Positions 11,427 to 46,736 of a DNA stretch of 64,000 bases are shown one piece after another. Positions within the stretch are counted from its first letter, which is position 1. Each line of letters begins with the position of its first letter. Under the pieces are notes generated by a model. The model saw only the letters and a list, made by a program, of their open reading frames with translations, had not been told where the DNA came from and did no database searches. The stretch comes from an uncultured Planctomycetota bacterium. GTDB lineage: Bacteria; Planctomycetota; PLA2; JAEUHO01. Where the stretch lies: positions 1,312,001-1,376,000 of the forward strand of contig CAVVXN010000005.1 in the NCBI GenBank assembly GCA_963752285.1, in the 5' to 3' direction. Position numbers and translations under genes: made by a program.

Positions 11427-11435
11427 CCGCGGACG

Positions 11436-31234: not shown

Positions 31235-31296
31235 GGGGACGACTCCTCGTGCACGGGGTCGATGGAGCACGACCGTCACGGCACGGCGACGGCCGA

Positions 31297-32310
31297 TCAG
31301 ACGACCGACGCGACGCGGGCGCCTGGAGCGAGGCGCAGCGCGTCGCGCCGGGCGACGTCGGAAGGGAGGACGAACGCGGCGGTCGCCGCAGCGTCGGCGG
31401 CGAGGCACGTCGGCGCGACGATCGTCACACTGTGGAAGGCGGCCTGGCGGGGCGCCGCGGTGGCCGGGTCGAGGAGATGGTGGTAGCGGCGGCCGGCGTA
31501 CGTGAAGCCCCGCTCGTAGTCCCCCGAGGTCGCGACGGCCTCGTCCCGGACCTCGAGGCGCCCCACGAGGCCGTCCGGGTCGTTGGGGTCCTGGATGCCG
31601 ATGCACCAGGGATCGCCGTCCTCCGACCCGCCGATCGCGACGAGGTCCCCGCCCACGTTCACGAGGGCGCCCCGCGCACCACGGCGACGGATCGCGGCGG
31701 CGGCGCGGTCCACGCCGTAGCCCTTCGCGATGCCGCCGAGGTCGATCCGCGCGGCGCGGTCCGTGAGGCGGACGGCGGGCCGGCCGCGCCACGTGTCCAC
31801 GTCGAGCGCACGCCAGAGGCCGCGCCCCGCGAGGGGCTTCCAGGCCTCGGCGGGCGGCGGCGCGGCGCGGTGCTCCACGTCCCACGCCTCCGTCGCCTCG
31901 AGCAGACAGGGGTCGAACGCGCCCCGGCTCCCCTCGGCCCAGCGGATCGCCTCGCGCAGCACGAGGGCCGTCTCGTCGCCGACGAACACGGCCTCCCGCG
32001 TCGCTCCGAGGTTCGCGCGGCCCACGTCCGACCGGGGGTCGAACCTCGACATCGTGCTCTCGACGCGGCGAAGCGCCGCGATCGCGTCCTCGAGGGCGGC
32101 CTCGGCGACGTGCGGGTCGTCGTGCACGACGGCGAGGTCCGCGAGCGTGCCCATGATCGGGATCGTCCGACGCGCGAGCGGCCGGCCACGACGACGCAGG
32201 GCCACGGGAACCGAGAGCGCGACGAACGCGCCGACGCCGAGCGCCAGCACGTCGCGGCGACTCGGACCGCGCGCGGCGCACCCGGGGCGGGGGTCAGGAC
32301 TGGAGGTCAT
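31297..32310 (-). CDS. apbE: FAD:protein FMN transferase with twin-arginine signal
   Basis: SRRDVL Tat motif, MGT, IDLGGIAKGYGVD, ATSGDYER, HHLLDP, ADAAATA. Confidence 0.93.
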   Translation of the reverse strand: MTSSPDPRPGCAARGPSRRDVLALGVGAFVALSVPVALRRRGRPLARRTIPIMGTLADLAVVHDDPHVAEAALEDAIAALRRVESTMSRFDPRSDVGRANLGATREAVFVGDETALVLREAIRWAEGSRGAFDPCLLEATEAWDVEHRAAPPPAEAWKPLAGRGLWRALDVDTWRGRPAVRLTDRAARIDLGGIAKGYGVDRAAAAIRRRGARGALVNVGGDLVAIGGSEDGDPWCIGIQDPNDPDGLVGRLEVRDEAVATSGDYERGFTYAGRRYHHLLDPATAAPRQAAFHSVTIVAPTCLAADAAATAAFVLPSDVARRDALRLAPGARVASVV

Positions 32311-32494
32311 CGGTGGACTCCTCGGACGGGGCGGACGCGCGCGCGCAGCCGGCGCAGCCGCCGGAGCGGGCCTCCTCGCAGTCCCGGCGCGCGTCGCAGC
32401 CCGGCCCGTCGTCCGGCGACCCGAAGCGGTGCTGGATCCAGACGAAGCCTCCGAAGAGGGCGCCGGTCACGACGATGGCGACGAGCGGGCTCAC
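32294..32494 (-). CDS. Small single-TM Cys-rich protein (66 aa)
   Basis: GTG start overlaps rnfA stop (GTGA); stop overlaps apbE start; TM followed by C-x5-C-x7-C-x2-C. Confidence 0.7.
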   Translation of the reverse strand: MSPLVAIVVTGALFGGFVWIQHRFGSPDDGPGCDARRDCEEARSGGCAGCARASAPSEESTDDLQS

Positions 32495-33072
32495 GACGCC
32501 GTCCCCAGGCCCGCGAAGCCCATGAACGCGAGGGAGAGCGTGCCCGCGATGATCAGCGTGAGGGCCGTCCCCCGCGCGATCGAGGGGACGTCCGCGAGCT
32601 CGGTGGTCTCTCGGATCGACGCCATCAGGACGAGCGCGAGCGTCAGCCCGAGGCCGGCGCCGAGCGCGTAGAAGAGGCCCTGGACCAGGGTGTAGTCGTA
32701 CTTCGTCGTCTGCCAGAGCGCGAGGCCCAGGATCGCGCAGTTGGTCGTGATGAGGGGGAGGTAGATTCCGAGCTGGCGGAACAGGGTGGGGCTCAGCTTC
32801 TTGATCGCCATCTCGGTGATCTGTACGAGCGAGGCGATCACCACGATGAACGAGATGAGCCGGAGGTAGGGCGCGGCGCGGAGCACGGTGTTGTGCAGCG
32901 CCCAGGCGCACACCGAGGTCATCGTGAGCACGAAGATGTTCGCGAGCCCCATGCGCAGCGCCGTCGCGATGCGCGACGAGACGCCCATGAAGGGGCAGAG
33001 CCCCAGGAAGAGCATGAGGGTGAAGTTGTTCACCACCATGGCGGAGAGGAGGATCCAGAGGAGACCGCCCAT
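32491..33072 (-). CDS. rnfA: Rnf electron transport complex subunit A
   Basis: VNNFTLMLFLGLCPFMGVS, LGIYLPLITTNCAILG, LSLAFMGF. Confidence 0.95.
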   Translation of the reverse strand: MGGLLWILLSAMVVNNFTLMLFLGLCPFMGVSSRIATALRMGLANIFVLTMTSVCAWALHNTVLRAAPYLRLISFIVVIASLVQITEMAIKKLSPTLFRQLGIYLPLITTNCAILGLALWQTTKYDYTLVQGLFYALGAGLGLTLALVLMASIRETTELADVPSIARGTALTLIIAGTLSLAFMGFAGLGTAS

Positions 33073-33770
33073 CACGGAGCCCTCCCGTCGAGCGAGCCCG
33101 CGCCGAGCGCGGCCCGCACCGCCTGGGGCGCGTCGGCGTCCGCCGCGTCCGGCCCCTCCGCGGGTCCGCGGGCGCGCGCCCGCCGCCACGCCGCGAGACC
33201 GAGGAGGAGGAAGCCGAGCGTCAGGAAGCCGCCGGGCGGCAGCTTCATGATGACCCAGGGCTGGTAGCTCGCGCCGAAGAGCGAGACGCCGAGGAACGTG
33301 CCGTTCCCGAGGACCTCGCGGAACGTGCCCATCAGGAGGAGCGCGATCGTGAAGCCGAGGCCCGAGCCGATCGCGTCGAGCGCCGCGCGGCCGACCGGGT
33401 TCCGGGCCGCGAACGCCTCCTGTCGGCCGAGGATGATGCAGTTCACGACGATCAGCGAGATGAACGCGCCGAGCGCCTTGTGGATGTCGGGCACCGTGGC
33501 CTCGAGCCCCATGTCGGCCACCGTCACGAAGGTGGCGATGATCAGCACGTACGTCGAGATGCGGACCTCGTGGGGGATCCACCGCTTCAGGGACGACACG
33601 AGGACGCTCGACCCGAGCAGTACGAAGAAGGTCGCGATGGCCATGGCGAGGCTGTTCGCGACCGTGTTCGTCACGGCCAGCGTCGGGCACAGGCCGAGGA
33701 GCTGGACGAGAACCGGGTTCTCGCGCCAGATGCCCCTCACGAGGTCGGCGGAGGCCGGGCGGGCGGTCAT
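33072..33770 (-). CDS. rnfE: Rnf electron transport complex subunit E
   Basis: GIWRENPVLVQLLGLCPTLAVT, LIVVNCIILGRQEAFA, LPPGGF. Confidence 0.95.
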   Translation of the reverse strand: MTARPASADLVRGIWRENPVLVQLLGLCPTLAVTNTVANSLAMAIATFFVLLGSSVLVSSLKRWIPHEVRISTYVLIIATFVTVADMGLEATVPDIHKALGAFISLIVVNCIILGRQEAFAARNPVGRAALDAIGSGLGFTIALLLMGTFREVLGNGTFLGVSLFGASYQPWVIMKLPPGGFLTLGFLLLGLAAWRRARARGPAEGPDAADADAPQAVRAALGAGSLDGRAP

Positions 33771-34492
33771 CGCGGAACCTCCTTCCCGGGGCCCGGGGCG
33801 GTCGGCCCGGACGGCGACGCCGGGTCCGGCCCGCCGCCCGGGTGCGCCGCGAGCCACGACGAGAGCACGGGGTCGAGGCGCTCGAGCGCGCCCCGGACGA
33901 TCCCGACGACGGCCCGGGACGAGATCGTCGCGCCCGTGATCATGTCCACCGCGTGCGTGTCGCCGTTCGACTCGCCCTGCTTGACGCCGTGGATCGGGAA
34001 CTCCTTGCCCTCGAACTGCGCGGCGAAGTGCGGGTCCTTCTCGATCGAGTCGCCGAGGCCGGGCGTCTCCTTGCTCTCGAGCACCTTGAGCCCCCGGATC
34101 TTCTTCGTCGTCGGGTCGTACCCGACGATCAGCCGGATCTCGTCCGCGTACCCGTTGGCGCCGGCGACGATCGCGAACCCGACGGGCTTCCCGGCCGCGT
34201 CGAACCCGAGGTAGACGGGCTCGAGCGTCTTGGGGTCGGCGCCGGGCGGCGGCTCGGCCGAGAGGTCGGCCCCGCGCACGTAGAGCGTCGTGGAGCGCGC
34301 GGGCGCGCCGAGGACCTCGCCGATCGCGGCCTTCAGCATCTCGGCCTTGTGGGCCAGGATCGCGGGCTGCGTCGCCTGGTACACGAACACGAGGAGGCCG
34401 CCCGCGACCGCCCCCGCCAGCGCGAGCGTCGCGACGAAGCGCCAGCTCGGCGTCTCCGGGCGCACGGACGGGGCGGCGTCGCCGGGACTCAC
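33767..34492 (-). CDS. rnfG: Rnf electron transport complex subunit G
   Basis: N-terminal TM, GYADEI, ETPGLG, FMN site DMITGATISS. Confidence 0.93.
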   Translation of the reverse strand: MSPGDAAPSVRPETPSWRFVATLALAGAVAGGLLVFVYQATQPAILAHKAEMLKAAIGEVLGAPARSTTLYVRGADLSAEPPPGADPKTLEPVYLGFDAAGKPVGFAIVAGANGYADEIRLIVGYDPTTKKIRGLKVLESKETPGLGDSIEKDPHFAAQFEGKEFPIHGVKQGESNGDTHAVDMITGATISSRAVVGIVRGALERLDPVLSSWLAAHPGGGPDPASPSGPTAPGPGKEVPR

Positions 34493-35535
34493 GACAGGAT
34501 CCTCGCGGCGCGCGTCCCGAAGACGCGCGGCTGCGTGGCGCGGTTGATGAAGGGCACGAGCGCGTTCATGAGGAGGATCGAGTACTGCACCCCCTCCGGA
34601 AGCCCGCCCCACAGGCGGATCGTGACGACGAGGAACCCGATCCCCACCCCGAAGACGACGCAGCCGCGGTGCGTGACGGGCGACGTGACCATGTCGGTCG
34701 CCATGTAGACGGCGCCGAGCGCGAGCCCGCCGGAGAGGAGCATGAAGCCCGGGCCGGGGAAGCGGTCCGGACCGAGAAGGTGGAGGACCCCCGAGAAGAG
34801 GCCGACGGTGGCGAAGATCGCCACGGGGATGCGCCAGTTGAGCCGGTTTCGGAGCGCCAGGTAGAGGCCGCCGAGGAGGATGAGGATCGCCGAGGTCTCG
34901 CCGAGCGAACCGCCGGTCGTGCCGAGGAGGAGGTGCGCGAGGTCCGTCCCCTGGTGCTGGAACTTCATGAGGCCGAGGGGCGTCGCCGCCGTGGTGCCGT
35001 CCACGACGTGCGGCGCCATCAACGGCAGCGCGAGGTTGTCGCCGCGCAGCCGGAGCCAGTCGGAGATGCGCTCGAAGGAGAAGGCGGAGAACCGGCCCCC
35101 CGAGACGAGGTTCGCAGGCCACGTCGTCAGCGCGACGGGGAACGCGGCCTGGAGGAACGCGCGCCCGACCAGCGCGGGATTGAAGGGGTTCTGGCCGAGG
35201 CCCCCGAAGATCAGCTTGCCGAAGCCGATGCCGAACACGCCGCCCACGAACGCCATCCAGAGGGGGACCCCGGCGGGGAGCGTCAATCCGAGGAGCAGGC
35301 CCGTGATCACGGCGGAGCCGTCGCCGAGCGTGCCGCGCCGCCCGAACGCGCGCTCGGTCAGGAGCGCGCCGAGGGTGGCCGCGGCCAGGACGAGCACCGC
35401 GCTCGGCCCGAAGAACCAGATCGAGGCGAGGATCACCGGCACGAGGCTCAGGACCACGGACCACATGATCCGCGGCGTGCTCTCCGGCGAGCCGAGGTGG
35501 GGCGAGGCGGTGACGAGCCAGCGGGGCGATCTCAC
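34489..35535 (-). CDS. rnfD: Rnf electron transport complex subunit D
   Basis: SPH start, DGSAVITGLLL, FGGLGQNPFNPALVGR, FMN site DGTTAATPL, GSLGETS, YMATDMVTSP. Confidence 0.95.
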   Translation of the reverse strand: MRSPRWLVTASPHLGSPESTPRIMWSVVLSLVPVILASIWFFGPSAVLVLAAATLGALLTERAFGRRGTLGDGSAVITGLLLGLTLPAGVPLWMAFVGGVFGIGFGKLIFGGLGQNPFNPALVGRAFLQAAFPVALTTWPANLVSGGRFSAFSFERISDWLRLRGDNLALPLMAPHVVDGTTAATPLGLMKFQHQGTDLAHLLLGTTGGSLGETSAILILLGGLYLALRNRLNWRIPVAIFATVGLFSGVLHLLGPDRFPGPGFMLLSGGLALGAVYMATDMVTSPVTHRGCVVFGVGIGFLVVTIRLWGGLPEGVQYSILLMNALVPFINRATQPRVFGTRAARILS

Positions 35536-36941
35536 GACGGCGCTCCCGGGGCGACCGGCGCGGACGCCGGGGCCGGCGCGGCGCCGCCCGACGCCGCGGG
35601 CGCCGGGGCCTTCGCCTGTCGCACGCGCAGCGCCGTGCGCGAGGCCTGGAAGAGCTGGCTCAGCGGGATGTGGGAGGGGCACACGTACGAGCAGCAGCCG
35701 CAGAGCATGCAGTCGGACAGGTGGTGGCCCGCCATCTCGTCCTCGCGGCCCGCGAGGGCGAGCTGGCCGAGGATCTGCGGGTTCAGGAACACGGGGCACG
35801 CGTCGAGGCAGTGTCCGCACCGGATGCACGGGTACGTCTCGGGGCGGCGGACCTCGCCCTCCACGAGGACGACGATGCCCGTGGTGCCCTTCGTCACGGG
35901 CGCGTCGAGGTTCGCGATCGAGGCGCCCATCATGGGCCCGCCGTTCACGACCTCGCGCGCGTCCTCGGTGAGCCCGCCGCTCGCGTCGAGGAGGTCGCGG
36001 ATCTTCGTACCGACCGGCACGATCCAGTTCCCGGGCCGACGGACGCCGTGGCCCGTGACCGTCACGATGCGCTCGATCAGGGGCAGCCCCGTCTCGAAGA
36101 CCTCCGCGATCGTGGCCACCGACGCGACGTTCTGGACGATCACGCCCACGTCCATGGGAAGGCGGCCCGTCGGCACGCGGCGCCGGAGGAGGGCGTCGAT
36201 GAGCATCTTCTCGGCGCCCTGCGGGTATTTCACGGTGAGGCCCACGATCTCGACGTCGAGGTCGGTCGGCCGCGTGGCCTTCATGCGTTCGAGCGCGTCG
36301 GGCTTGTTCTTCTCGATCCCCACGATCGCGCGCGGCACGCCGAGACAGCGCATCATCAGGCGGATGCCGAGGTGCACCCGCTCGGGAAAGTCCACCATCG
36401 TCCGGTGGTCGGTCGTGAGGTACGGCTCGCACTCGCAGCCGTTGATCACCAGCGTGTCGATCGACTTCCCGTCCGGGGGCGACAGCTTCACGTGGGTCGG
36501 GAACGCGGCGCCGCCGAGGCCCACCACCCCCGCGTGGCGGACCGCTTCGACGGTCTCCTCGCGCGTCAGGCGCTCCCAGGCCGGGACCAGGCGCGGCCTC
36601 GGCGCCTGCGCGGACCAGGGCTCGACCTCGATCCGGACCGAAGTCTCCATGGAGCCGTCCGGGTGCGGCCAGAGTCCGACCGACACGACGCGCCCGGACG
36701 CCGACGCGTGGATCGGCACGGAGACCCAGCCGTCGGCCTCGGCCACGACGTCGCCGCGCTCCACGCGGTCGCCCTCCCGGACGATCGGCCGCGCGGGCCG
36801 GCCCGCGTGCTGTCGCACGGGGAGGACGACCTCCGCCGGGAAGGGCATGCGACGCACAGGCAGGTGCGCCGTCAGCTCCTTCGCCTCGGGCGGGTGGACG
36901 CCGTGCCGGAAGCGGGGCTTCGTGTGGTTCGGCTTCGCCAT
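35532..36941 (-). CDS. rnfC: Rnf electron transport complex subunit C
   Basis: GVHPPEAK, GLGGAAFPTHVKL, NGCECEPYLTTD, KYPQGAEK, GGPMMG, CIRCGHCLDACP and CMLCGCCSYVCP. Confidence 0.96.
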   Translation of the reverse strand: MAKPNHTKPRFRHGVHPPEAKELTAHLPVRRMPFPAEVVLPVRQHAGRPARPIVREGDRVERGDVVAEADGWVSVPIHASASGRVVSVGLWPHPDGSMETSVRIEVEPWSAQAPRPRLVPAWERLTREETVEAVRHAGVVGLGGAAFPTHVKLSPPDGKSIDTLVINGCECEPYLTTDHRTMVDFPERVHLGIRLMMRCLGVPRAIVGIEKNKPDALERMKATRPTDLDVEIVGLTVKYPQGAEKMLIDALLRRRVPTGRLPMDVGVIVQNVASVATIAEVFETGLPLIERIVTVTGHGVRRPGNWIVPVGTKIRDLLDASGGLTEDAREVVNGGPMMGASIANLDAPVTKGTTGIVVLVEGEVRRPETYPCIRCGHCLDACPVFLNPQILGQLALAGREDEMAGHHLSDCMLCGCCSYVCPSHIPLSQLFQASRTALRVRQAKAPAPAASGGAAPAPASAPVAPGAPS

Positions 36942-36946
36942 GGTGC

Positions 36947-39900
36947 TCAGCGGAAGCGCTCCGCGCGCTTCACCCACTTGTCCAGGTCCCTCTCCTTCGG
37001 GTCGAGCGGGGTCCCCGGGTGGATGATCTTGACGGGGCACTTCTCCGCAGCGACCACGAGGTCGCGATAGGGCCCGCCGCGCGGGTCCTTCACGACGGCC
37101 TGCTTCTTGTCGTTGTAGGCGAAGAGGCGCCGGTTCAAGTTGACGCACTCGTGGCAGGTCGTGCAGCGCGCGGACTCGATCCACGGCTCCACGTCGAGCG
37201 TCTCGTCGGCGGGCGCCTCCGCGGTGGACGTGGCCGTCGCCGCGGGCGCCGACGGCGAGACGGCCGTCCCGCTGGCCGCCGCCACGCCGCCCGGTGCCGC
37301 GCCGGCCGGAGCCGCAGCGGCGCCGGGGGCCGCGAACAGGCCGTCGGTACCCGCCGCCACGGGCTCGAGCCCGGCCGCCTCGACGCGCGCCAGGATGTCG
37401 GCCAGCGTCGCGCCGGCGTCGCCCTGACGCAGGAGCCCCTCGGCCATGCGCCGTGCGACCGCGAGCGGGATCCGCGCCCTCAGGTCGGCGATCTTCGCCT
37501 CGTACTCCGCCTTGAGCGCCTGGAGCTTCTCCTCGTACGCCGCGGCGACCTCCCGCTCTACGAGGTCGTGGACGGGCGGCGACGCCTCGGTGCCGGCGAG
37601 CTGACGCAGGTGCCGCCACGCGTCGATCCGGTCGTCGGCCAGGTGCACGATGGACGACGAGACGAGGAGGCGCGCGAGGTGGTTCTCGGCGTCCAGCGTG
37701 TAGATGAACGGGATGGCGTCCCCACGCTCGGCGGCCGGCATCGCCACGTAGTCCGCGAACGGGACCACGTCGTCGTCGGGCCTCGCCGGCTTGAACTGCT
37801 TCTGGAAGCGGCCCTCGGTCGCGGCCCAGTCGGCGATCGTGAGCGGCAGCGTCAGGGTCTTCGCCTGGCCCTGCTCGTCCTCGTACGAGAGCTCGTACGT
37901 CGGCCAGAGGTCTTCGATCGCGGGGTTGCCGTCGAGGCTCATGCGCTCCGCGATCGAGGTCCCGGCGTCGGGGTCGTACACGAGGAGCGGGAACGCGCGG
38001 CTCTCGAGCGCGAGCTTCGCGGCGCGCATCGACGAGTAGTCGGCGAGACCGTGCTCGGGCGGGCACGGGGCGTGGAGGACGAAGAGCGCCGGGCGTCGCG
38101 CCTTCAGCCCCCTGATCACGCCGCCGAGCAGATGGCTCGGCAGCGCCTGCGAGGACTGCAGCACGTAGGCCTGGCGGTGGGCGATGCCGACGAGCGAGAG
38201 CTCCTTCCGCATCTCCTCCTTGCCCTGGTGCGCCTTCCCGAACGCCGCCATGTCGGAGACCTGGCCCGTGAACGAGCCCGTGGACGCCTGGCCGCCGGTG
38301 TTGGAGTACACCTGCGTGTCGAGCACGACGACGCGGACGGGCTTGTCGGACGCGAGCAGGCGCGACAGGTTCTGGAAGCCGATGTCGAGCATCGCGCCGT
38401 CGCCCCCCACCGCGATGATGGGCGGGCAGAGGAGGAACTCCTCCTCGGAAAAGTCGTGCCAGTCGAGGCGCGCGAAGACGGCTTCGTCGCGCTGGGCGTC
38501 GTACTCGTCCTTCGCGAGGAGATCCGCGCGGCGGACCGCGACGAAGTTGTCGGTCATCTTCCGCATGTGCCCTTCGAAGATGCCGATGGCGATCGAGGGG
38601 GCGTCCTGGAAGAGGTGGTTCACCCAGGGGAAGGGATACGGGTTGTACGGGTACGTGCTGCCCCACACGGACGAGCAACCGGTCGAGTTCGTGAACCCGA
38701 GCGACGCCCGACCCTTGCCGCTCGGCCCCTCGACGTAGCGCCACCGGAGGTCCTTCACCTCGCGGATCGACCGCACGATCCGCTCGATCTCGCGCCGGCG
38801 CTCCGGGTCGAGCGCGACCTCGGCTCCGACGCCGCCCTCGACCATCCGGTCGAGGTCGGCGTCCGAGGAGAGGAGCATCCGTGCCTTCTGGTCGAGCGTC
38901 TCCACGATCTCGTCGAGGCGCTTCACGAACGCGTGCACCCGAGGCCGCATCACCGCGTTCACGGCGGCGACCACGAGGTGGATCCCCGTCTTCTCGCCGC
39001 AGCCCATGCAGGCGCCGTCGCCGCCCACCATGGACATGTAGTTGTCCTTCTTGAGCAGGAGCGACGAGAGGATCCCGATACCCTCGTCCAGGCTCGCGAC
39101 GTCCACGAACCGGTCGTCGGTGTCCGGCAGGTGCCGCCAGAGCGACCACCGCCGGCGCAGGTCCTCGACGACCTGGTCCGTCTGCTTGATCGTGACGAGC
39201 GCGCCCGTGGGGCACACGTTCACGCAGATGTTGCAGCCCTTGCAGGTCTCGGGGTTCACGGTGACCGAGAGGAGGCCGCCCGACCCCGGCTCCGCCGACT
39301 CCGGCACGTCGAAGAACGGGGCCGTCTTCGCCAGCGGGAAGTCCTGCAGCTCGGCCGCCACCGCCTGGAACTCCTGGTCCAGGGCGTGGCGCCGCTCGGG
39401 GTCGAGGTCGAGCTTCGCCGCGACGGTCTCGTAGCTCTGCGTCAGCACCTCGGAGAAGGAGGCAAACGGCCCGCTCTTCATCACGCGGCGCGCCTCGCGG
39501 CCCAGGTGCTTCACGATGGGCTTCAGGCGGTCGTACGTGCGGCCGTTCGAGATCGTGCGGATCGCGGCGTCGAGGACGTCCTCGATGCCGCTCACGACGC
39601 CGGGAATGGCCGAGTCGGGGCACTGCGTCCAGCAGGCCGCGCAGCCCGTGCACTTCGACGCGACGAACTCCGGCACCTCGAAGCGCATGTCGGTCATGTC
39701 GCGGATCGACGACGTCGCGGCGGGGATCGCGGAGATCGCGGCGAACGGGTCGGCGATCCCGTCGGCGCCCGACTTGTACAGGTGGCAGACCTGCTCCCAG
39801 AAGCGGCCGGGGTGCGCGATGCCGTCCTGGGCCGCCGCGTCGCCGAGGATCTCGGGCATGACGGGAACGTGCCCGCTCTCCGGCCCGTCGTCGGAGAGGG

Positions 39901-42004
39901 TCGAGAGGTCGAGCGTCTTCGCCTCCGAGAAGCCGCGCCGGACGACCTCGAGGTTCTCCTCCACCACGCGCCCGCCGAGGTGACCGAACTTCTTCTTCGT
40001 CTGCGCGAGGATGCCCGCGAAGAGACGTTCCTCGTCGAGGTCGTGCTCCTTGACGAGCGAGGAGGCGCGGAAGAAGGCGCCCATGAAGGCCGCGCCCTGC
40101 ATGCGGTAACGCAGGTCCGGGTTCGTCGCGACCTCGGACGCGATCTGGAACGCGTCGAGCGACCAGACGCGGATCTCCCGCTCGCGGATCTGGCGCTGCG
40201 CGGTCCGCGGGAGCGTGTTCCAGAGCTCCTGCGGCGCGAGACTGCTCTGGATCACGAACACGCCGCCCTTCGCGAGGCCGGCGAGCGGGTCGGAGTGCCG
40301 GAACACGTTCGGGTCCGGCGAGAGGACCACGTCCACGTGCTTGAGCTCGCAGTTCGTCCGCACCGGCTCGCTCGCGAGCGTGGCGTAGAACGTGGTCGGC
40401 TGGCCCTTCTTCTCGGAGCCGTACTTCGGGTTCGCCTGGATCTGGAGGCCCAGCAGGTCCGCCGCGGTCACGGCGAGGTTCTTGCCCATCGTGATCGCGC
40501 CCCACCCGCCGACCGAGTGGATGCGGATCGAAGTGGACCCCTTCGGCAGGAGGTTCACGTCCGCACCCGGGTCGAGCGCGAGCCCCTCGAGGAGGGGATA
40601 GCTCTCGAGCAGGCGCTCCTGCCAGATCTGGAGCTTGGGGAGCCGCGTACCCTTCCGGACGAAGTCGATCCCGAGGTAGAAGAGCCGGCGGTTCGCGCCG
40701 CCCTCGAGCATGTTCTCCACGGCCGCGACCAGGTGGTTCGGCTGCAGGTCCCGGCTCCCGAGCCCGTACACGCCCGCGTAGAACTCGGGGACCTCCTCGG
40801 GCCGGCACGCCGTGACGCCCAGGTGCGGGGTCTTTGCGCGCGCGCGCCCGTTCTCGACCGCCTTGCCCATCGCCGCGCGGATCTCGCGAAGCAGCGGCTG
40901 GTCCGCGGCGAGCGGCTGGTCGGTGCGCTCGAGCACCACCACCCCCTTCTTGCCGCGGAGCAGCCGGGTCACCTGGTCCGAGGGGAAGGGACGGAACATC
41001 GCCATCTGCACCACGCCGACCTTCAGCTTCTTCGCGGCGCGCAGATGGTCGGCCACCGCCTCGGCGTTCTTCACGACGGAGCCCTGTCCGACGATGAGCC
41101 AGTCGGCGTCCTCCGCGCGATACCCCATCACGCGGGCGTAGGCGCGGCCCGTGAGCGCGGCGTACTCCTCGAACGCGCGGTCGGCGAGCTCGGCGAGGTG
41201 GTCGAAGTAGAACGGCCGCTGCGCGGCGACGCCCTGGGCGTACGCGTCCTGGTTCTGGACCACGCCGAGCATCGCGGGGTAGTCCACGTCGTACAGCTCC
41301 GGCACACGACGGCGGCGTTCGCCGAACACGAGCCGCTGGGCGGGCGTGGGCGACGGGATCTGGTCCGCCGGGTCGCCGAGGTACTCGTCCACCAGCGCGC
41401 GCTCGGGCAGGAGGACCGACTCGATCACGTGGCTCGTGAGGAACCCGTCCTGGGCGCAGATCCCCGGGTTCAGCGAGAGCTCCGCGATGCGGTGTGCGAT
41501 CAGGTCGAAGTCGGCGGCCTGCTGCACGTCCTTCGCGAAGATCTGGAAGAACCCCGTGTCGTCCACCGCGTGGTAGTCGTCGTGACCCGCGTGCACGTTG
41601 AGCGCGTGCTTGGTCATCGCGCGGCACGCGACGTTGAGCACGTACGTGAGCCGCTTGCCGACCGCCGCGTACAGCGACTCGTGCATGTACGCGATGCCCT
41701 GCCCGCTCGAGAAGTTCGTCGCGCGGAGCCCCGTCAGGCTCATGCCGGCGGTCACGGCGGCCGCGGCGTGCTCGCCCTCGGGCTCGAAGAAGATGAGCTG
41801 ACGACCGCGCACGTTGGGCGTGCCCGCCGCCATCGCCGCCGCGAAGCCCTCGCCCATCTGCGTGGAGGGTGTGATGGGATACGCGCCGGCGGCGTCCGAC
41901 GCGGCCGTCTCCATCGCGACGACGGCGCCGCTCCCGTCCGTGGCGGTCGGGACCCCCGGGTACTTCGGGGCGGCCGCGTTCGCGTCCTTCGGGCTGGTCT
42001 TCAT
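36947..42004 (-). CDS. nifJ: Large single-chain pyruvate:ferredoxin oxidoreductase with C-terminal ferredoxin
   Basis: YPITPST, gamma domain GGWGAIT..YGSEKKG, CTGCAACWTQCP and CKGCNICVNVCP, ACMGCGE, GCSSVWG, TPP motif GGDGAMLDIG..YSNTGGQ, extra CTTCHEC..KCP domain. Confidence 0.9.
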   Translation of the reverse strand: MKTSPKDANAAAPKYPGVPTATDGSGAVVAMETAASDAAGAYPITPSTQMGEGFAAAMAAGTPNVRGRQLIFFEPEGEHAAAAVTAGMSLTGLRATNFSSGQGIAYMHESLYAAVGKRLTYVLNVACRAMTKHALNVHAGHDDYHAVDDTGFFQIFAKDVQQAADFDLIAHRIAELSLNPGICAQDGFLTSHVIESVLLPERALVDEYLGDPADQIPSPTPAQRLVFGERRRRVPELYDVDYPAMLGVVQNQDAYAQGVAAQRPFYFDHLAELADRAFEEYAALTGRAYARVMGYRAEDADWLIVGQGSVVKNAEAVADHLRAAKKLKVGVVQMAMFRPFPSDQVTRLLRGKKGVVVLERTDQPLAADQPLLREIRAAMGKAVENGRARAKTPHLGVTACRPEEVPEFYAGVYGLGSRDLQPNHLVAAVENMLEGGANRRLFYLGIDFVRKGTRLPKLQIWQERLLESYPLLEGLALDPGADVNLLPKGSTSIRIHSVGGWGAITMGKNLAVTAADLLGLQIQANPKYGSEKKGQPTTFYATLASEPVRTNCELKHVDVVLSPDPNVFRHSDPLAGLAKGGVFVIQSSLAPQELWNTLPRTAQRQIREREIRVWSLDAFQIASEVATNPDLRYRMQGAAFMGAFFRASSLVKEHDLDEERLFAGILAQTKKKFGHLGGRVVEENLEVVRRGFSEAKTLDLSTLSDDGPESGHVPVMPEILGDAAAQDGIAHPGRFWEQVCHLYKSGADGIADPFAAISAIPAATSSIRDMTDMRFEVPEFVASKCTGCAACWTQCPDSAIPGVVSGIEDVLDAAIRTISNGRTYDRLKPIVKHLGREARRVMKSGPFASFSEVLTQSYETVAAKLDLDPERRHALDQEFQAVAAELQDFPLAKTAPFFDVPESAEPGSGGLLSVTVNPETCKGCNICVNVCPTGALVTIKQTDQVVEDLRRRWSLWRHLPDTDDRFVDVASLDEGIGILSSLLLKKDNYMSMVGGDGACMGCGEKTGIHLVVAAVNAVMRPRVHAFVKRLDEIVETLDQKARMLLSSDADLDRMVEGGVGAEVALDPERRREIERIVRSIREVKDLRWRYVEGPSGKGRASLGFTNSTGCSSVWGSTYPYNPYPFPWVNHLFQDAPSIAIGIFEGHMRKMTDNFVAVRRADLLAKDEYDAQRDEAVFARLDWHDFSEEEFLLCPPIIAVGGDGAMLDIGFQNLSRLLASDKPVRVVVLDTQVYSNTGGQASTGSFTGQVSDMAAFGKAHQGKEEMRKELSLVGIAHRQAYVLQSSQALPSHLLGGVIRGLKARRPALFVLHAPCPPEHGLADYSSMRAAKLALESRAFPLLVYDPDAGTSIAERMSLDGNPAIEDLWPTYELSYEDEQGQAKTLTLPLTIADWAATEGRFQKQFKPARPDDDVVPFADYVAMPAAERGDAIPFIYTLDAENHLARLLVSSSIVHLADDRIDAWRHLRQLAGTEASPPVHDLVEREVAAAYEEKLQALKAEYEAKIADLRARIPLAVARRMAEGLLRQGDAGATLADILARVEAAGLEPVAAGTDGLFAAPGAAAAPAGAAPGGVAAASGTAVSPSAPAATATSTAEAPADETLDVEPWIESARCTTCHECVNLNRRLFAYNDKKQAVVKDPRGGPYRDLVVAAEKCPVKIIHPGTPLDPKERDLDKWVKRAERFR

Positions 42005-42852
42005 CCGTTGACACTCCTCGCGAGCTCGCGCGGAGGCGTGAGCTGCGCGTGCTCGACCCAGAGGATGGCTCCCGTCGGGCACCGTGTGGCGGCCTCGGGC
42101 CGGGCCGCGTCGTTCTTCGTGTAGTCGATCACCGCGAGACCCCGGCGGATCTCGATCAGGCCGGGCGCGGCGTCGTCTACGCAGCGGCCGCATCCCGTGC
42201 AGGCCACCTGGCACTGCGCCTGTGCCTCGTCGCCCTCGAGGAGGCTCCGGCACTGGACGATCAGGTGCTGTTCCACCGGCATGATGGAGAACAAGTCCTT
42301 CGGGCACGCGTCCACGCAGTCGCCGCACGCCGTGCAGCGCTCGGGCGTCACGACCGGCAGCCCGACGGGGTTCATGTGGATCGCGTCGAACGTGCAGGCG
42401 CGGGCGCAGTCGGCCAGGCCGAGGCACCCCCACGAGCACGCCTTCCCGCCCCCCGCGACCGCGGCCGCGGCGCGGCAGGTCAGGAGGCCCGTGTAGTCGG
42501 CGCGCTGCACGGCGACGTCGCACCCGCCCGCGCAGAGCAGCCGGGCGACGCGCTTCACGGCCTCGCCCGCCTCGACGCCCAGGTAGTCGGCGACGGCCTG
42601 GATCCCCTCGGGGTTCATGTTCGTGCACTTCGCGGGCTGGGCCGCGCCGCCGACGAGCCCCTCCGCGAACGAGCGGCAGCCGGCGAAGCCGCAGGCCCCG
42701 CAGTTCGTCCCGGGGAGCAGGTCGGTCACCGCGTCGATCCGCGGGTCCTCCCAGACCCTCAGACGGCGGTTCGCCAGCGCGATGAGCGAGCCGAACACGA
42801 GGCCGACGCCGCCCAGCACGAGCACCGAGTCGAGGATCTGGGTGGGATCCAC
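42001..42852 (-). CDS. rnfB: Rnf electron transport complex subunit B
   Basis: N-terminal TM, DPRIDAV..LPGTNCGACGFAGC, several 4Fe-4S motifs; SD GGAGG before GTG. Confidence 0.93.
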   Translation of the reverse strand: MDPTQILDSVLVLGGVGLVFGSLIALANRRLRVWEDPRIDAVTDLLPGTNCGACGFAGCRSFAEGLVGGAAQPAKCTNMNPEGIQAVADYLGVEAGEAVKRVARLLCAGGCDVAVQRADYTGLLTCRAAAAVAGGGKACSWGCLGLADCARACTFDAIHMNPVGLPVVTPERCTACGDCVDACPKDLFSIMPVEQHLIVQCRSLLEGDEAQAQCQVACTGCGRCVDDAAPGLIEIRRGLAVIDYTKNDAARPEAATRCPTGAILWVEHAQLTPPRELARSVNG

Positions 42853-42860
42853 GTCGCCTC

Positions 42861-43865
42861 CTACGAGCCCGAAACCGGTCCGGCCTGCTGCAGGAGCCAC
42901 GCCGCGAGGCGCCCCGCGGGGTCGGCCGGCGGTCCTGAGGCGCCCGACGCGGGCGTGGCCGCGGTCTGCGCCTCGAGGAGACGGGACAGGTGTCGCATCG
43001 TCTCGGCCTGCTGGAACACGCTCCACGCGCCGACCGGACGCGCGGGCGCCGTCTCGGGGAGGTGGACCGCGCCGAGCGCGTTCGATGCGCCGCCCTCGAC
43101 CGCGGGGTCGTGGACGAAGCGCGCCGCACCCTCCGGCACGACGGCCGCGACGCCGGGGCCCTTCCACGCGCCGAGACCCGCGAGGCCCGCGAGCGACGTG
43201 ACCTGGGCGACGTACGTGCCCGGCGTCACGAGCCGGGCGAGCGGCGCGACCGGGCACGCGCCGCGCACGAGGAGCACGAGCTTCATCTCTCCGTCGAGGT
43301 AGCCGGCCAGACAGTCGGCGAGGAGGTCGCCTCCGTCCACGTCCACGACGAGCGGCGGGGCGATCCGGCGCTCGCCGCGGTTCCAGCGGAGGAAGGGAAA
43401 GGGGCGCGCGAGGTCCGTCGCGCCGGCCGCGTCCGGCCGTCCCGCGCGCGCGAGCTCGGCGGCGCGGGCGGCCGCGAAGGCGCGGCCCACCTCGCCGAGG
43501 CGCGCCTCGACGACGTGGTGGAGGCTCGCGCCGGAAGGCACCTCCACGCGGAACGCCGCGTCGCCCCGTTCGAGGAGGTCGGTCAGGACGCGGAACGCCT
43601 GCTCGACGATCGCCATCGCGCCGGGCTCGACGACGGCACGCTCCCGGCGCGCGACGGCCTCGAACAGGTCGCCGCGGATGCGCCCGAGGGCGAACGCCCC
43701 GAGGTCCGCCGCCCCGCCGCCCCGCGGGTCGGTCGCGTCGCCCTGCGCGTCCGTCGCCATGTCGCGGAGACGCTCGATCGTGGCCGCCAGCGCCGATCGG
43801 AACGCGCCGAGCGGTCGGCTCAGGGTCTCGAAGACGTTCGGCTCGTTCGGCTTCTCAGACGGCAT
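42861..43865 (-). CDS. Hypothetical protein resembling a degenerate PFOR TPP-binding (beta) domain
   Basis: Coupled between korB and rnfB; several segments align by eye with the beta region of the adjacent PFOR but lack the GDG..N motif and the cluster cysteines. Confidence 0.75.
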   Translation of the reverse strand: MPSEKPNEPNVFETLSRPLGAFRSALAATIERLRDMATDAQGDATDPRGGGAADLGAFALGRIRGDLFEAVARRERAVVEPGAMAIVEQAFRVLTDLLERGDAAFRVEVPSGASLHHVVEARLGEVGRAFAAARAAELARAGRPDAAGATDLARPFPFLRWNRGERRIAPPLVVDVDGGDLLADCLAGYLDGEMKLVLLVRGACPVAPLARLVTPGTYVAQVTSLAGLAGLGAWKGPGVAAVVPEGAARFVHDPAVEGGASNALGAVHLPETAPARPVGAWSVFQQAETMRHLSRLLEAQTAATPASGASGPPADPAGRLAAWLLQQAGPVSGS

Positions 43866-44814
43866 GGCGGTCGAGCTCCCCGTTCAGGATCGAGATGCGC
43901 TCCTCCGCGGTCAGCACGGGGAGGCGCCGGATCTCGTCGTAGCGCGCCCGGGTCGGGTCGCAGAAGAACAGGCCCAGGCGCACCCGCCCCGCGTCCTCCG
44001 CGAGCTCGCGGGCCCGCGAGAGGTCGTGCGGGTCGTGGCGAACCTGGTTCTTGTAGACCGACTCGGTGTCGTCGTCGCGGATCCCGTCCGCGTGGACGAG
44101 GATCTCGGTGTGGTCGGGGTTCTGCGCCGCGTCGCGGTAGATCCCCGGCGTCCACACGGGACAGCGCTGGAGGATCCGCACGAACGCGAAGCCCGGGTGC
44201 TTCCACGCGGCCTCGAGCGTCGCCGCGAGGTGACCGGGCGCCCAGTCCGCCGTCTGCGCGACGAAGGAGGCGTTCGTCACGCCGAGGGTCGCCGTGAGCG
44301 GGTTCAGCGCGGGCAGGTACGAGCCGTGGGGCTGCGTGAGGCTCGGGTGACCCTGCGGCGTCGTCGGGGACGTCTGGTTCTTGGTGAGACCGTAGATGTT
44401 GTTGTCGAGGAGCAGCGCGACGAGGTTCACGTTGTACCGGACCGCGTGGATCCAGTGGGCCGCGCCGATCGAGCAGCAGTCGCCGTCGCCCATCACCGTG
44501 AACACGTCCAGGTCGGGGCGCGCGAGCTTGACGCCGATCGAGACGGGCAGGGCGCGGCCGTGGATCCCGTGGAAGCCGTACGTCTTCAGATAGTGGGGGA
44601 AGCGGCTCGAGCACCCGATCCCCGAGACGAAGACCGTCCGCTCCGGCTCGAGCTGCTTCGCCGCGAGCAGGCGCAGCGTCGCGCCGAGGATCGCGTGGTC
44701 GCCGCATCCCGGGCACCAGCGCGCCACCGGACCTTCGTAGTCCCCGACCTCCCACGTGCGGTCGTCCTCGACGACCGCCGCGCAGCCCGCGAGGGCACAG
44801 CTCGGCTCGATCAC
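43855..44814 (-). CDS. korB: 2-oxoacid:ferredoxin oxidoreductase beta subunit
   Basis: WCPGCGD, SGIGCSSRFP, HGRALP, GDGD..NNIYGLTKNQTSPT, QRCP. Confidence 0.93.
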   Translation of the reverse strand: MIEPSCALAGCAAVVEDDRTWEVGDYEGPVARWCPGCGDHAILGATLRLLAAKQLEPERTVFVSGIGCSSRFPHYLKTYGFHGIHGRALPVSIGVKLARPDLDVFTVMGDGDCCSIGAAHWIHAVRYNVNLVALLLDNNIYGLTKNQTSPTTPQGHPSLTQPHGSYLPALNPLTATLGVTNASFVAQTADWAPGHLAATLEAAWKHPGFAFVRILQRCPVWTPGIYRDAAQNPDHTEILVHADGIRDDDTESVYKNQVRHDPHDLSRARELAEDAGRVRLGLFFCDPTRARYDEIRRLPVLTAEERISILNGELDRHAV

Positions 44815-46736
44815 GCGTCACCTCCCTTCGCGGTCTTCCCGAAGCGTTCGCGGACGGCCCGGAGGATCTGGCCCGGCCGCAGCGGCTCGCCCGGCACGCG
44901 GGTCCAGCAGTCGGCGTCCACGAGCAGCTGCCCGCGCAGGAGCCAGGCGAGCTGGCCCCGGCGACGGTTCTCGTCGTTCACGTGCGGGGCGTCCGGCTCG
45001 TCGCTGTAGTTGATCTCGACGGTCAGGACGCGGCGGTACCGCCGGCAGATGTCCTTCACCCCGGGCGGGAGGGGCGAGAGGAACGTGAGGTGCATCGACG
45101 CGACGGAGAGGCCCTCCGCCCGCGCGCGCTCGGCCGCCTCCTCGATCGCGCCGCGCGTGCTCCCCCACCCGACGATCAGCAGGTCGCCCTCGCTCGGGCC
45201 GACGACGGGCGGCGGCTCCAGCATCGACTGCAGCGTGGCGAGCTTCCGGCTCCGCATCGCGTGGGCGCGCTGGTTCACCGCGGGGTCGTACGTGACCTTC
45301 GATCCCTCGTCGTGGCAGAGCCCCGTCGCCGTGAACATCCCGCCCGGCTGGCCCGGCACGAACCGACGCGAGAGCCCGGTCGCGGGGTCCCACTGGTACG
45401 GCTTCGCACCGGGGGGCAGCGCCGACTGGTCCGGGGGCCGCGCCTGCCAGCGCTCGTCCGGCTCGGGCCGCGCGAACGGCTGCACGCCCGTGGCGAGGTT
45501 CGCGTCGGAGAGGACCATGACGACGCATCGGAACGTCTCCGCGATGCGCCGCGCGGTCACCATGCAGTGGAAGCACTCCTCGATGGTCGAGGGCGCGAGC
45601 ACCACCTTCGGCGCGTCGCCGGGCTGGCCGAACATCGCGGCGAGCAGGTCCGACTGCTCCACCTTCGTGGGGAGCCCCGTGCTCGGGCCGCCGCGCTGCA
45701 CGTCCACCAGGACGAGGGGGGTCTCGGTGATGACGGCCAGGCCGAGGAACTCGGTCTTGAGCGCGAGGCCCGGGCCCGACGTGACCGTGAACGCGACCTT
45801 GCCCGCGTACGAGGCGCCGATCGCGACCCCGATCGCGGAGATCTCGTCCTCCGCCTGGTGCAGCACGCCGCCCGTGCGGTCGAACACCTCGCCGAGGTAG
45901 TGCGACACCGAGGTCGCCGGCGTGATCGGGTACATCGCGCAGAGCTCGAGCCCCGCGGCGATGGCGCCCATCCCGATCGCCGTGTTCCCGTTCATCACGA
46001 CCATCGGCTTCTCGATCGGTCGTGACGGCACATCGACCCGGAACTCGATGTGCTCCTCCGCCCACTGCATGCCCCGCTCGAGGAGCTGTACGTTCTTCTC
46101 GTACACCGCGGGGGACTTCTTGCGGAACTGGAACGCGATCTGTTCCTTCACGCGCTGGGGGTCGCGGCCGTAGATCGTGGTCAGCAGCCCGAGCGCGAAC
46201 ATGTTCTTGCCGCGTCGCGGGTTGTCCACCACCTCGAGCGACTCGGCCTCCATCGGCACCGGCACGAAGCGGTACCGCCGCGTGCCGAGCTCCTCCATGG
46301 CCGCGGTCCAGGCCTTGACGACGTCCGGGTCGGGGTGCTCGCTCCACATCGACTCGATGAGGATCACCGCGTCCTCGGCGAGCGCGCCGAGGCGGTGTCG
46401 CGAGAGGAGGACCTGCTCGTTGAACGCGACGACGAGCTGCGCCTCGTCGCCCCAGTTCGTCACGGGGTCCGTCCCGAGCCGGATCCGGACGCCGGACGCG
46501 CTCCCCGGGCTGCGCGGCGGGGGCTGGATCTCGGCCGGGATGATCTCGACCGTCCAGACGCCGTTCCCCATCTTCGCGGAGACGGCCCCGAAGGTCTGAC
46601 CGCACTTCTGCGCGCCCTCCCCGGAGTCCGACACCACCTCCACGGTGTGCTCGGGCACGGTGATCCTCCGCGGCGTGGTCGCCTGGGGTGCCGGCTCGGC
46701 GTGGTTCGCGGTCGCGGAGGGCTGCTCTCGAGTCAT
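44811..46736 (-). CDS. korA: 2-oxoacid:ferredoxin oxidoreductase alpha subunit (gamma-alpha fusion)
   Basis: SDSGEGAQ, YPITPAT, QAEDEI, TSGPGLALK, QRGGPSTGLPTK, GWGST. Confidence 0.93.
   Translation of the reverse strand: MTREQPSATANHAEPAPQATTPRRITVPEHTVEVVSDSGEGAQKCGQTFGAVSAKMGNGVWTVEIIPAEIQPPPRSPGSASGVRIRLGTDPVTNWGDEAQLVVAFNEQVLLSRHRLGALAEDAVILIESMWSEHPDPDVVKAWTAAMEELGTRRYRFVPVPMEAESLEVVDNPRRGKNMFALGLLTTIYGRDPQRVKEQIAFQFRKKSPAVYEKNVQLLERGMQWAEEHIEFRVDVPSRPIEKPMVVMNGNTAIGMGAIAAGLELCAMYPITPATSVSHYLGEVFDRTGGVLHQAEDEISAIGVAIGASYAGKVAFTVTSGPGLALKTEFLGLAVITETPLVLVDVQRGGPSTGLPTKVEQSDLLAAMFGQPGDAPKVVLAPSTIEECFHCMVTARRIAETFRCVVMVLSDANLATGVQPFARPEPDERWQARPPDQSALPPGAKPYQWDPATGLSRRFVPGQPGGMFTATGLCHDEGSKVTYDPAVNQRAHAMRSRKLATLQSMLEPPPVVGPSEGDLLIVGWGSTRGAIEEAAERARAEGLSVASMHLTFLSPLPPGVKDICRRYRRVLTVEINYSDEPDAPHVNDENRRRGQLAWLLRGQLLVDADCWTRVPGEPLRPGQILRAVRERFGKTAKGGDA

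Follow-up and report, generated by a model that had tools for sequence, protein, structure and literature searches.

The 64-kb stretch of DNA analysed here (hereafter the window; positions 1,312,001 to 1,376,000 of contig CAVVXN010000005.1, assembly GCA_963752285.1) belongs to an uncultured Planctomycetota bacterium and carries a twelve-gene operon in which the genes of two 2-oxoacid:ferredoxin oxidoreductases (OFORs) are interleaved with those of all six subunits of an Rnf complex. The order is korA-like, korB-like, g3, rnfB, PFORL, rnfC, rnfD, rnfG, rnfE, rnfA, g11 and apbE, with PFORL denoting a single-chain enzyme resembling pyruvate:ferredoxin oxidoreductase (PFOR). The genes are tightly packed, the cofactor motifs of both oxidoreductases are intact, and the layout is conserved far beyond chance, as the same gene order is found in most of 80 related loci. 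This conserved synteny, together with a ferredoxin domain that PFORL is modelled to carry on a tether, strongly suggests that the oxidoreductases and Rnf are functionally coupled. With a confidence that falls somewhat short of even, we favour the reading that the operon encodes one redox module, in which NAD(H) and an ion gradient would be coupled, by way of RnfB and the ferredoxin that PFORL brings along, to the interconversion of 2-oxoacids with acyl-CoA and CO2.

Gene content and packing of the operon

All twelve genes lie on the minus strand of the window, the coordinates of which are used throughout, so that the gene order reads from high to low coordinate (Table 1). The GC content of the window is around 73%, and six-frame lists of open reading frames are consequently noisy, with many spurious frames. 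The codon-position GC content indicates uninterrupted minus-strand coding from 46736 to 31297, and gene starts were chosen as start codons with a Shine-Dalgarno-like sequence upstream. A preliminary description of the window, based on the letters alone, had placed the ends of the operon at exactly these two positions, which are the korA start and the apbE stop. Its gene calls and tight junctions are likewise supported by the coding profile, the Pfam and NCBIfam matches and the junctions themselves, which are overlaps or gaps of at most 8 nt. As computed by hand from the gene coordinates, six junctions overlap by 4 nt (korA/korB, rnfB/PFORL, rnfC/rnfD, rnfD/rnfG, rnfG/rnfE and rnfA/g11), and overlaps of 1, 11 and 17 nt occur at rnfE/rnfA, korB/g3 and g11/apbE, respectively. 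An 8-nt gap separates g3 from rnfB, and the PFORL-rnfC junction is either a 31-nt overlap (start at 36977) or a 5-nt gap (start at 36941). The identities of 10 out of 12 genes are backed by Pfam and NCBIfam; the window copies of g3 and g11 have no match in either database. A search for a sigma-70-like promoter found none, and only two terminator-like matches occur on the minus strand, located within rnfD and PFORL. We infer that the twelve genes are co-transcribed as one expression unit.

Table 1. Genes of the operon and the adjacent CBS-pair gene, in window coordinates.
Feature	Coordinates	Strand	Product	Description
korA-like	44811-46736	-	641 aa	Fused gamma and alpha subunit of a two-subunit OFOR
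korB-like	43855-44814	-	319 aa	Beta subunit, binding thiamine diphosphate (ThDP) and [4Fe-4S]
g3	42861-43865	-	334 aa	Conserved protein, likely a cofactor-less pseudo-domain VI
rnfB	42001-42852	-	283 aa	N-terminal membrane helix, small Fe-S domain, polyferredoxin domain
PFORL	36947-42004	-	1685 aa (5.06 kb)	Single-chain PFOR-like enzyme with insertions and a predicted C-terminal tethered ferredoxin
rnfC	35532-36977 (GTG start) or 35532-36941 (ATG start)	-	481 aa or 469 aa
rnfD	34489-35535	-	348 aa
rnfG	33767-34492	-	241 aa
rnfE	33072-33770	-	232 aa
rnfA	32491-33072	-	193 aa
g11	32294-32494	-	66 aa	One membrane helix and a cysteine cluster
apbE	31297-32310	-	337 aa	FAD:protein FMN transferase with a twin-arginine-like N-terminus
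CBS-pair protein	30803-31279	-	158 aa	Two Pfam CBS domains; 17 nt downstream of apbE

Conservation of the layout and phylogeny of PFORL

A scan for PFORL across one genome per species (GTDB r232) returned at least 678 stretches with relatives, the best 80 of which were analysed. Their identity to PFORL is 54-71% (one short best segment reaches 84%), mostly over full-length matches. The twelve operon proteins and the CBS-pair protein were aligned to these loci by tblastn, and gene order was recounted under explicit rules. The gene-neighbourhood survey proposed in the preliminary description thus finds the layout in most of the 80 best loci, including the position of the PFOR-like gene between rnfB and rnfC that had been read from the window. 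It also bears out the suspicion that similar PFOR-rnf clusters exist in other lineages: they occur in many genomes, and the present one is not unique. Directly upstream of PFORL, rnfB is found in 54 out of 58 assessable loci (exceptions L023, L067, L073 and L076), and rnfC is the direct downstream neighbour in 59 out of 63 (exceptions L059, L067, L073 and L076). The complete upstream block korA-korB-g3-rnfB is present in 41 out of 46 assessable loci (exceptions L023, L031, L067, L073 and L076) and the downstream block rnfC-D-G-E-A in 43 out of 49 (exceptions L033, L048, L059, L067, L073 and L076). A same-strand apbE occurs within 6.5 kb in 31 out of 47 assessable loci, which is an undercount owing to the identity threshold.

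Some loci show individual variants. In L020, apbE is placed between rnfG and rnfE. In L033, rnfC and rnfD are followed by apbE, and rnfG, rnfE and rnfA were not found there. In L059, around 6.8 kb separates PFORL from rnfC. In L067 (15176-15991, -) and L073 (14818-16248, -), an ApbE gene lies directly downstream of the lone PFORL on the opposite strand.

Phylum labels were taken from the submitters' record titles of the metagenome-assembled genomes (MAGs). Across the 80 loci, these cover eight phyla: Gemmatimonadota (n = 56), Pseudomonadota (n = 6), Acidobacteriota (n = 5), Planctomycetota (n = 4), Myxococcota (n = 3), Rokuibacteriota (n = 2), Thermodesulfobacteriota (n = 1) and Armatimonadota (n = 1), with two loci unassigned. 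The closest PFORLs among the best 80 (66-68% identity) come from MAGs labelled Gemmatimonadales and Planctomycetaceae. In a FastTree phylogeny of 51 full-length PFORLs, from which 30 loci were omitted as partial or not in a single frame, the phylum labels cluster (8 changes, where 5 is the minimum and shuffled labels give a mean of 13.6). The window protein is sister to the PFORL of a MAG labelled Planctomycetaceae (support 98), and rows that are not Gemmatimonadota are nested in Gemmatimonadota-dominated clades. Such mixed labels are compatible with transfer of the entire cluster from time to time as well as with bins that carry a wrong label. They would also suit a mobile 'selfish operon', in which the genes are mere neighbours, co-expressed or co-transferred, with Rnf serving the general ferredoxin pool and the oxidoreductases using other partners; the three loci in which PFORL stands alone (L067, L073 and L076) point the same way. 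However, the placement of PFORL between rnfB and rnfC would be hard to keep without a shared function, and both the family-specific fused ferredoxin and the family-specific g3 travel with the cluster. We therefore regard a mere neighbourhood as very unlikely.

A divergent PFOR with a predicted tethered ferredoxin

PFORL contains the Pfam domains POR_N, PFOR_II, POR, Fer4, TPP_enzyme_C and Fer4_13 (1610-1662), and close relatives are named 'pyruvate-ferredoxin/flavodoxin oxidoreductase' by JGI. All catalytic domains align with solved single-chain PFORs, namely those of Moorella thermoacetica (6cin, E-value 1.1e-79) and Desulfovibrio africanus (1b0p, E-value 2.3e-78). The characteristic features of a PFOR are found: domains I, II, III, V and VI, the ThDP motif GDG...N and three times four cluster cysteines. 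In the alignment of 51 PFORLs, 17 cysteines are at least 90% conserved. Two CxxCxxCxxxC sets lie in domain V (785/788/791/795 and 921/924/927/931) with around 125 inserted residues between them, domain VI has five conserved cysteines (999, 1002, 1110, 1193 and 1314), sufficient for the proximal cluster, and a fourth set is formed by C1614, C1617, C1620 and C1656. GGDGAM...SNTGGQ, the ThDP motif, shows no variation among 41 sequences. Given this invariant motif and the cysteines for three clusters plus the fourth set, PFORL looks active. The M. thermoacetica PFOR can be aligned with it in the segments YPITPS and xxAxRA, and the Thr and Arg positions, which we take to be carboxylate-binding residues, are apparently conserved. 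By its sequence, PFORL is a divergent relative that stands outside the curated PFOR equivalog, and in substrate it would be most like PFOR.

Compared to the single-chain PFORs of D. africanus and M. thermoacetica, PFORL shares the domain order I-II-III-V-VI, the ThDP motif and the three [4Fe-4S] cysteine sets. It is, however, around 450-500 residues longer. The differences comprise the insertion of around 125 residues in domain V, helical insertions in domain VI and a C-terminal extension of around 340 residues after domain VI, ending in the tethered ferredoxin. A model of this extension built from the 51-sequence alignment (mean predicted local distance difference test score, pLDDT, of 85) is made up of a beta-rich subdomain modelled with confidence, a helix of around 50 residues (~1476-1527), a linker of around 60 residues and a likewise confident terminal domain. 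The linker (~1545-1605) has a pLDDT below 50 and coincides with the least conserved, Ala/Pro-rich stretch. The best structural match of the terminal domain is ferredoxin I of D. africanus (1fxr; E-value 9.2e-4, target TM-score 0.85), onto which it superimposes with a root-mean-square deviation of 0.8 Å over 58 columns, and further single-cluster ferredoxins rank next. For the remainder of the extension, no solved structural analogue was found. The disordered, poorly conserved linker between confident parts and the ferredoxin fold of the terminal domain identify PFORL, at the level of the model, as a PFOR-type enzyme that carries its own single-cluster ferredoxin on a flexible tether.

The KorAB-type second oxidoreductase

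The korA-like protein matches Pfam POR (39-224) and POR_N (257-484) and scores 529.3 with NCBIfam TIGR03710 (OAFO_sf), above the cut-off of 482.75. Its best solved relative is the alpha chain of the 2-oxoglutarate:ferredoxin oxidoreductase (OGOR) from Magnetococcus marinus (6n2n_A, E-value 2.7e-85), and that of the korB-like protein, which matches Pfam TPP_enzyme_C, is the corresponding 6n2n_B (E-value 1.8e-47). In 33 korB-like orthologues, C34, C37, C68 and C218 as well as the GDGD motif are invariant. With the OGOR equivalog models, the korAB-like scores are all far under the cut-offs. KorAB appears most like OGOR, and 2-oxoglutarate would be its substrate. It resembles the two-subunit OFORs of M. 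marinus (6n2n) and Sulfolobus tokodaii (5b46) in having a fused gamma-alpha subunit and a beta subunit that holds ThDP and a single [4Fe-4S] cluster; it differs in that korAB is located directly upstream of rnfB, with the translationally coupled g3 following. Two-subunit OFORs lack domain V and have a single Fe-S cluster (PMC13768988), because of which KorAB would rely on an external ferredoxin.

The Rnf complex, g11 and apbE

All six Rnf subunits (A, B, C, D, E and G) are encoded together, five of them scoring above the NCBIfam cut-offs. RnfB matches Pfam FeS (46-77) and Fer4 families (TIGR01944, 81.2 versus a cut-off of 68.7), RnfC matches RnfC_N, Complex1_51K, SLBB and Fer4 (TIGR01945, 505.6 versus 245.95), RnfD matches NQR2_RnfD_RnfE with an E-value of 2.1e-103 (TIGR01946, 315.8 versus 207.05), RnfG matches FMN_bind (TIGR01947, 110.9 versus 102) and RnfE matches Rnf-Nqr (TIGR01948, 231.2 versus 213.4). 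Flavinylation-type motifs, recognised by a consensus that we assume to apply, are present in RnfD (DGTTAAT at residue 179) and RnfG (DMITGAT at residue 183). Paired cysteines occur at matching positions in RnfE (C28 and C111) and RnfA (C26 and C112); following published Rnf and NQR structures, we take these to be ligands of an intramembrane [2Fe-2S] cluster. On the strength of the NCBIfam scores, the flavinylation-type motifs and the paired cysteines, the Rnf complex looks complete. RnfB has 20 cysteines that are invariant or nearly so in 33 orthologues, enough for the cluster of the small domain and four more. RnfB is stated to have two to seven clusters in its C-terminal part (PMC12174285), which covers the latter number.

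The location of apbE downstream of the rnf genes is usual, and its product matches Pfam ApbE with 240 bits (cut-off 25.6; E-value 4.2e-71). The order rnfB-C-D-G-E-A has been reported in Bacteroidetes and Chlorobi (PMC3534657, citing Biegel et al. 2011). The present operon shares this base order and the six subunits with the expected domains, motifs and cysteines. It differs by the 5-kb PFORL between rnfB and rnfC, by korA, korB and g3 ahead of rnfB and by a Cys-rich mini-protein between rnfA and apbE.

This mini-protein is encoded by g11. Among the 46 loci in which rnfA was found, most have a small Cys-rich open reading frame immediately after it. An alignment of 32 orthologues reveals one hydrophobic helix followed by three to four cysteines, with C39 and C47 invariant and C33 nearly so. 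Pfam PF12669 (FeoB_associated) is matched by 22 out of 32 (best E-value 1.6e-6), with the window copy below threshold. In nqr operons, the structural genes are followed by apbE and by nqrM, a small gene for Fe-S maturation, and the intramembrane [2Fe-2S] cluster in the Na+-NQR of Vibrio requires NqrM (PMC12174285). The present operon is similar to the apbE-nqrM tail of Vibrio cholerae nqr in having a flavin transferase and a small Cys-bearing membrane protein encoded at its 3' end. In contrast, the g11 orthologues that match a family match PF12669 and not NqrM, and the order is reversed, g11 preceding apbE. An identification of g11 as NqrM is not supported, as no NqrM/DUF539 match exists among the 32 orthologues even at an E-value of up to 10. 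By analogy, g11 is likely a helper in the delivery of Fe or Fe-S.

g3 and a family of degenerate PFORL relatives

The overlap of the g3 start with the korB stop is similar in most orthologous loci compared. The position of g3 is kept in related loci, and its 42 aligned orthologues mostly start with MPSD/E. A profile search returned 343 relatives; among the 120 listed, all given names are 'hypothetical protein' and no Pfam domain is present. By sequence, g3 has no significant match to solved structures (best E-value 0.088), and no usable match was found in the ESM Atlas. An AlphaFold2 model (pLDDT 87.5, predicted TM-score 0.82) has helices in its N-terminal part, an alpha/beta part of six strands and, after a low-complexity linker, a C-terminal helix that is conserved. 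This amphipathic helix (~310-330) has the consensus DPADKLAAWLLxQADL with an invariant W323, is preceded by a linker that varies, and looks like a docking peptide. In the orthologue alignment, no cysteine of g3 is conserved and a ThDP motif is missing, GDG being degenerate and the diphosphate loop lost. A Foldseek search of the model against the PDB places PFOR chains at ranks 1-10, 12 and 17, although these hits are weak (none with an E-value of at most 0.001, TM-score ~0.24); OFOR beta subunits and further ThDP enzymes come next in the list. Using hhalign against PFORL 980-1420, g3 residues 123-273 align with PFORL ~1147-1364 over 151 columns (E-value 4.6e-5, probability 68.6%). Truncated and without cofactors, g3 would derive from the C-terminal half of the PFORL lineage, as a 'pseudo-domain VI'; we have moderate confidence in this reading. 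The preliminary description had called it a pseudo-beta subunit. This stands insofar as g3 aligns with PFORL domain VI, the beta-equivalent region, and lacks the ThDP motif and any conserved cysteine; a derivation from KorB was ruled out, with an hhalign probability of 2%.

Proteins that share the C-terminal half of PFORL make up a large, uncharacterised family. A profile of the PFORL extension matches 2165 representatives with an E-value of at most 0.001, 1725 at 1e-10 or below and 946 at 1e-30 or below, out of 1.84 billion searched. Of the top 150 matches (P0124-P0273), 81 are 760-900 amino acids long. According to regular expressions, 80 of these 81 have no GDG motif, 78 retain the CxxCxxC...CP set at the end, and 76 begin with M. 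One example, P0157 (874 amino acids, encoded on a 193-kb contig), aligns with PFORL 1142-1685 at 31% identity and has lost the GDG and SNTGGQ motifs; g3 residues 21-172 align with its residues 244-426 (hhalign probability 95%, E-value 3.3e-8). A reading of the proteins of around 800-890 residues that bear the extension as a split form of the enzyme was ruled out by the lost ThDP motifs (80 out of 81 in this length class without GDG). Judging from the alignments, these proteins are instead degenerate PFORL paralogues that share its C-terminal half, extension and terminal ferredoxin domain. A degenerate paralogue of around 870 residues as a further member of the cluster was also ruled out, as it is encoded neither in the window nor in the 80 loci. 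One source calls a member of these paralogues simply 'ferredoxin', and some representatives of 1300-1650 residues matching the extension profile likewise have no GDG motif.

The features of g3 bear on a further reading, which takes up the membrane supercomplex of the preliminary description and has the oxidoreductases stably docked on Rnf; g3 would be a pseudo-subunit that serves as scaffold, and the tethered ferredoxin would work within the assembly. This reading would accord with the translational coupling of korB and g3 by an overlap that recurs in orthologous loci, with g3 being a likely cofactor-less relative of domain VI, which we presume to form dimer contacts in PFORs, and with the conserved C-terminal helix of g3 behind its low-complexity linker. 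The conserved layout also sets rnfB beside PFORL and apart from rnfCDGEA. However, co-expression alone can also yield a conserved gene order, and the tether of PFORL equally fits transient docking. A prediction of complexes of KorB and RnfB (30-283) with g3 as a partner gave a score of 0.00; with no control runs, it bears neither way. A stable supercomplex seems improbable to us.

Proposed mechanism and direction

When the operon is read as one redox module, PFORL and KorAB would interconvert 2-oxoacids with acyl-CoA and CO2. The ferredoxin domain of PFORL, on its tether, may shuttle electrons between the oxidoreductases (possibly including KorAB) and RnfB, so that the electron path would run from ThDP over three clusters and the tethered ferredoxin to RnfB. 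RnfB's C-terminal domain is described as taking electrons from cytoplasmic ferredoxin (PMC12174285). RnfC, RnfD, RnfG, RnfE and RnfA would link the electrons to NAD+/NADH while H+ or Na+ crosses the membrane. ApbE would flavinylate RnfG and RnfD, and g11 may supply the Fe or Fe-S. As a putatively catalytically dead relative of PFORL domain VI, g3 may have a structural, assembly or regulatory role. Run oxidatively, the module would convert pyruvate and 2-oxoglutarate with a yield of NADH and an ion-motive force that NAD-linked dehydrogenase complexes leave unconserved. The chemistry is reversible, and in a reverse run the ion-motive force would drive reductive carboxylation.

The oxidative direction is favoured only slightly over the reverse one, in which the ion-motive force generated by respiration drives Rnf, NADH reduces ferredoxin, and PFORL and KorAB act as pyruvate and 2-oxoglutarate synthases. 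Such a reverse run, which we consider possible though unlikely, would assimilate acetyl-CoA, succinyl-CoA and CO2 for anaplerosis, acetate use or a partial reductive tricarboxylic acid (TCA) cycle, a purpose we regard as similarly unlikely. The reductive TCA cycle has two ferredoxin-dependent carboxylations, and a PFOR-like and an OGOR-like enzyme would fit both. A tethered carrier would limit the leakage of scarce low-potential electrons, and the oxidative direction could be covered by an NAD-linked 2-oxoacid dehydrogenase encoded in the window. The latter is represented by an E1 alpha (E1_dh) and an E1 beta gene (Transket_pyr, truncated by the window end) at 62166-63998 (+), around 15 kb from the ferredoxin-dependent oxidoreductase genes; the organism probably has both NAD-linked and ferredoxin-dependent 2-oxoacid oxidation. 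Gemmatimonadota are not known to use the reductive TCA pathway, which counts against a reverse run, as does the lack of any ATP-citrate lyase or other carbon-fixation gene visible within the 64-kb window. In the aerobe Azotobacter vinelandii, on the other hand, Rnf reduces ferredoxin with proton-motive force and NADH (PMC12174285).

A number of observations weigh against the reading of the operon as one redox module, in either its enzymology or its integrity. The E1 pair implies that the module is not the sole route of 2-oxoacid oxidation. PFORL reaches 380.9 bits with TIGR02176, in three stretches, compared to a cut-off of 911.35 for the PFOR equivalog; the korB-like protein scores 215.2 with TIGR02177, below the cut-off of 261.9; and RnfA falls just under the TIGR01943 cut-off (222.3 versus 229.3), yet obtains 186.9 bits with Pfam Rnf-Nqr. 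The stand-alone PFORLs without neighbouring rnf genes, in three loci labelled Acidobacteriota, are joined by L023, in which the order is PFORL-rnfCDGEA-apbE and upstream housekeeping genes on the opposite strand replace korAB-g3-rnfB. Because of these four loci, PFORL does not depend strictly on an adjacent Rnf. Moreover, the gene order comes from the best 80 of at least 678 relatives, and remoter ones may differ in arrangement.

A more far-reaching version of the redox module is a membrane-bound, ion-pumping 2-oxoacid:NAD+ oxidoreductase, which would constitute a new respiratory entry enzyme with PFORL and KorAB docked on RnfB with the help of g3. We consider this doubtful, and equally so that electrons would stay inside the assembly owing to the covalently tethered ferredoxin.

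Surroundings of the operon in the window

For the CBS-pair gene downstream of apbE, tblastn gives no match across the 80 related loci. The gene is possibly co-transcribed with the operon and outside the conserved cluster, and may be a lineage-specific addition encoding a nucleotide-sensing regulator. Further downstream lies an RND efflux system (OEP, HlyD and AcrB domains). Upstream of the operon, a 323-nt spacer is followed on the same strand by two response-regulator and two histidine-kinase-like genes (47060-51649, -), beyond which an 832-residue protein with a radical-SAM domain is encoded at 51757-54255. A Ser/Thr protein kinase of 759 residues fused to an FGE-sulfatase-like domain (59266-61545, +) is located close to an AsnA-type asparagine synthetase and a glutamine-synthetase-like gene (56164-58813). 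The GC-richest part of the window (around 80% GC at 12-14 kb) holds a gene for a 911-residue protein with seven CarboxypepD_reg-like repeats (11427-14162, +). The remainder is ordinary chromosome, with dnaE, dnaX, recR, metK, secA, pyrD, lspA, uvrC and a Kdo transferase gene.

Novelty and biological significance

In the full-text literature searched, which did not extend to subscription literature, no description was found of OFOR genes within an rnf operon, of g3 or of a PFOR that has around 1700 residues and is fused to a ferredoxin. The consulted parts of a 2025 review of RNF and NQR (PMC12174285) do not mention 'PFOR', 'oxoglutarate' or 'supercomplex', and those of a November 2026 review of PFOR diversity (PMC13768988) do not contain 'Gemmatimon', 'extension', 'genomic context' or 'neighbor'. 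The latter review lists domains I-VII without naming a PFORL-like form, and treats Rnf only as a generic re-oxidiser of ferredoxin. Rnf, PFOR or OGOR are dealt with only separately in PMC10734482, bioRxiv 10.64898/2026.01.22.701106, PMC3534657 and PMC6064768, the last of which records Rnf genes for 20 Rokubacteria MAGs and gives no context for them. The components of the operon are all of known kinds; new, it seems, are the variant form of PFOR, the accessory families of g3 and g11 and the fact that the combination is conserved.

Rnf is the one pump known to interconvert ferredoxin, NADH and ion-motive force. To this pump, the operon would hard-wire two ferredoxin-dependent 2-oxoacid enzymes, one of them with a built-in carrier. 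How low-potential ferredoxin electrons are made, used and protected outside strict anaerobes is an open problem, and the role of PFOR in aerobes has been called 'enigmatic' (PMC13768988). The operon offers a testable system in this respect, with a defined gene set, a predicted electron path and two uncharacterised accessory families. Gemmatimonadota are an abundant and poorly understood phylum of soils and sediments. The cluster is common in MAGs labelled as such, and could alter metabolic reconstructions in which 'PFOR', 'Kor' and 'Rnf' are annotated apart. If PFORL, KorAB and Rnf did form a respiratory entry enzyme, Gemmatimonadota and the acquirers of the operon would possess an energy-conserving substitute for the dehydrogenase complexes of pyruvate and 2-oxoglutarate. 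Run in reverse, the same enzyme would provide respiring cells with low-potential electrons for CO2 assimilation.

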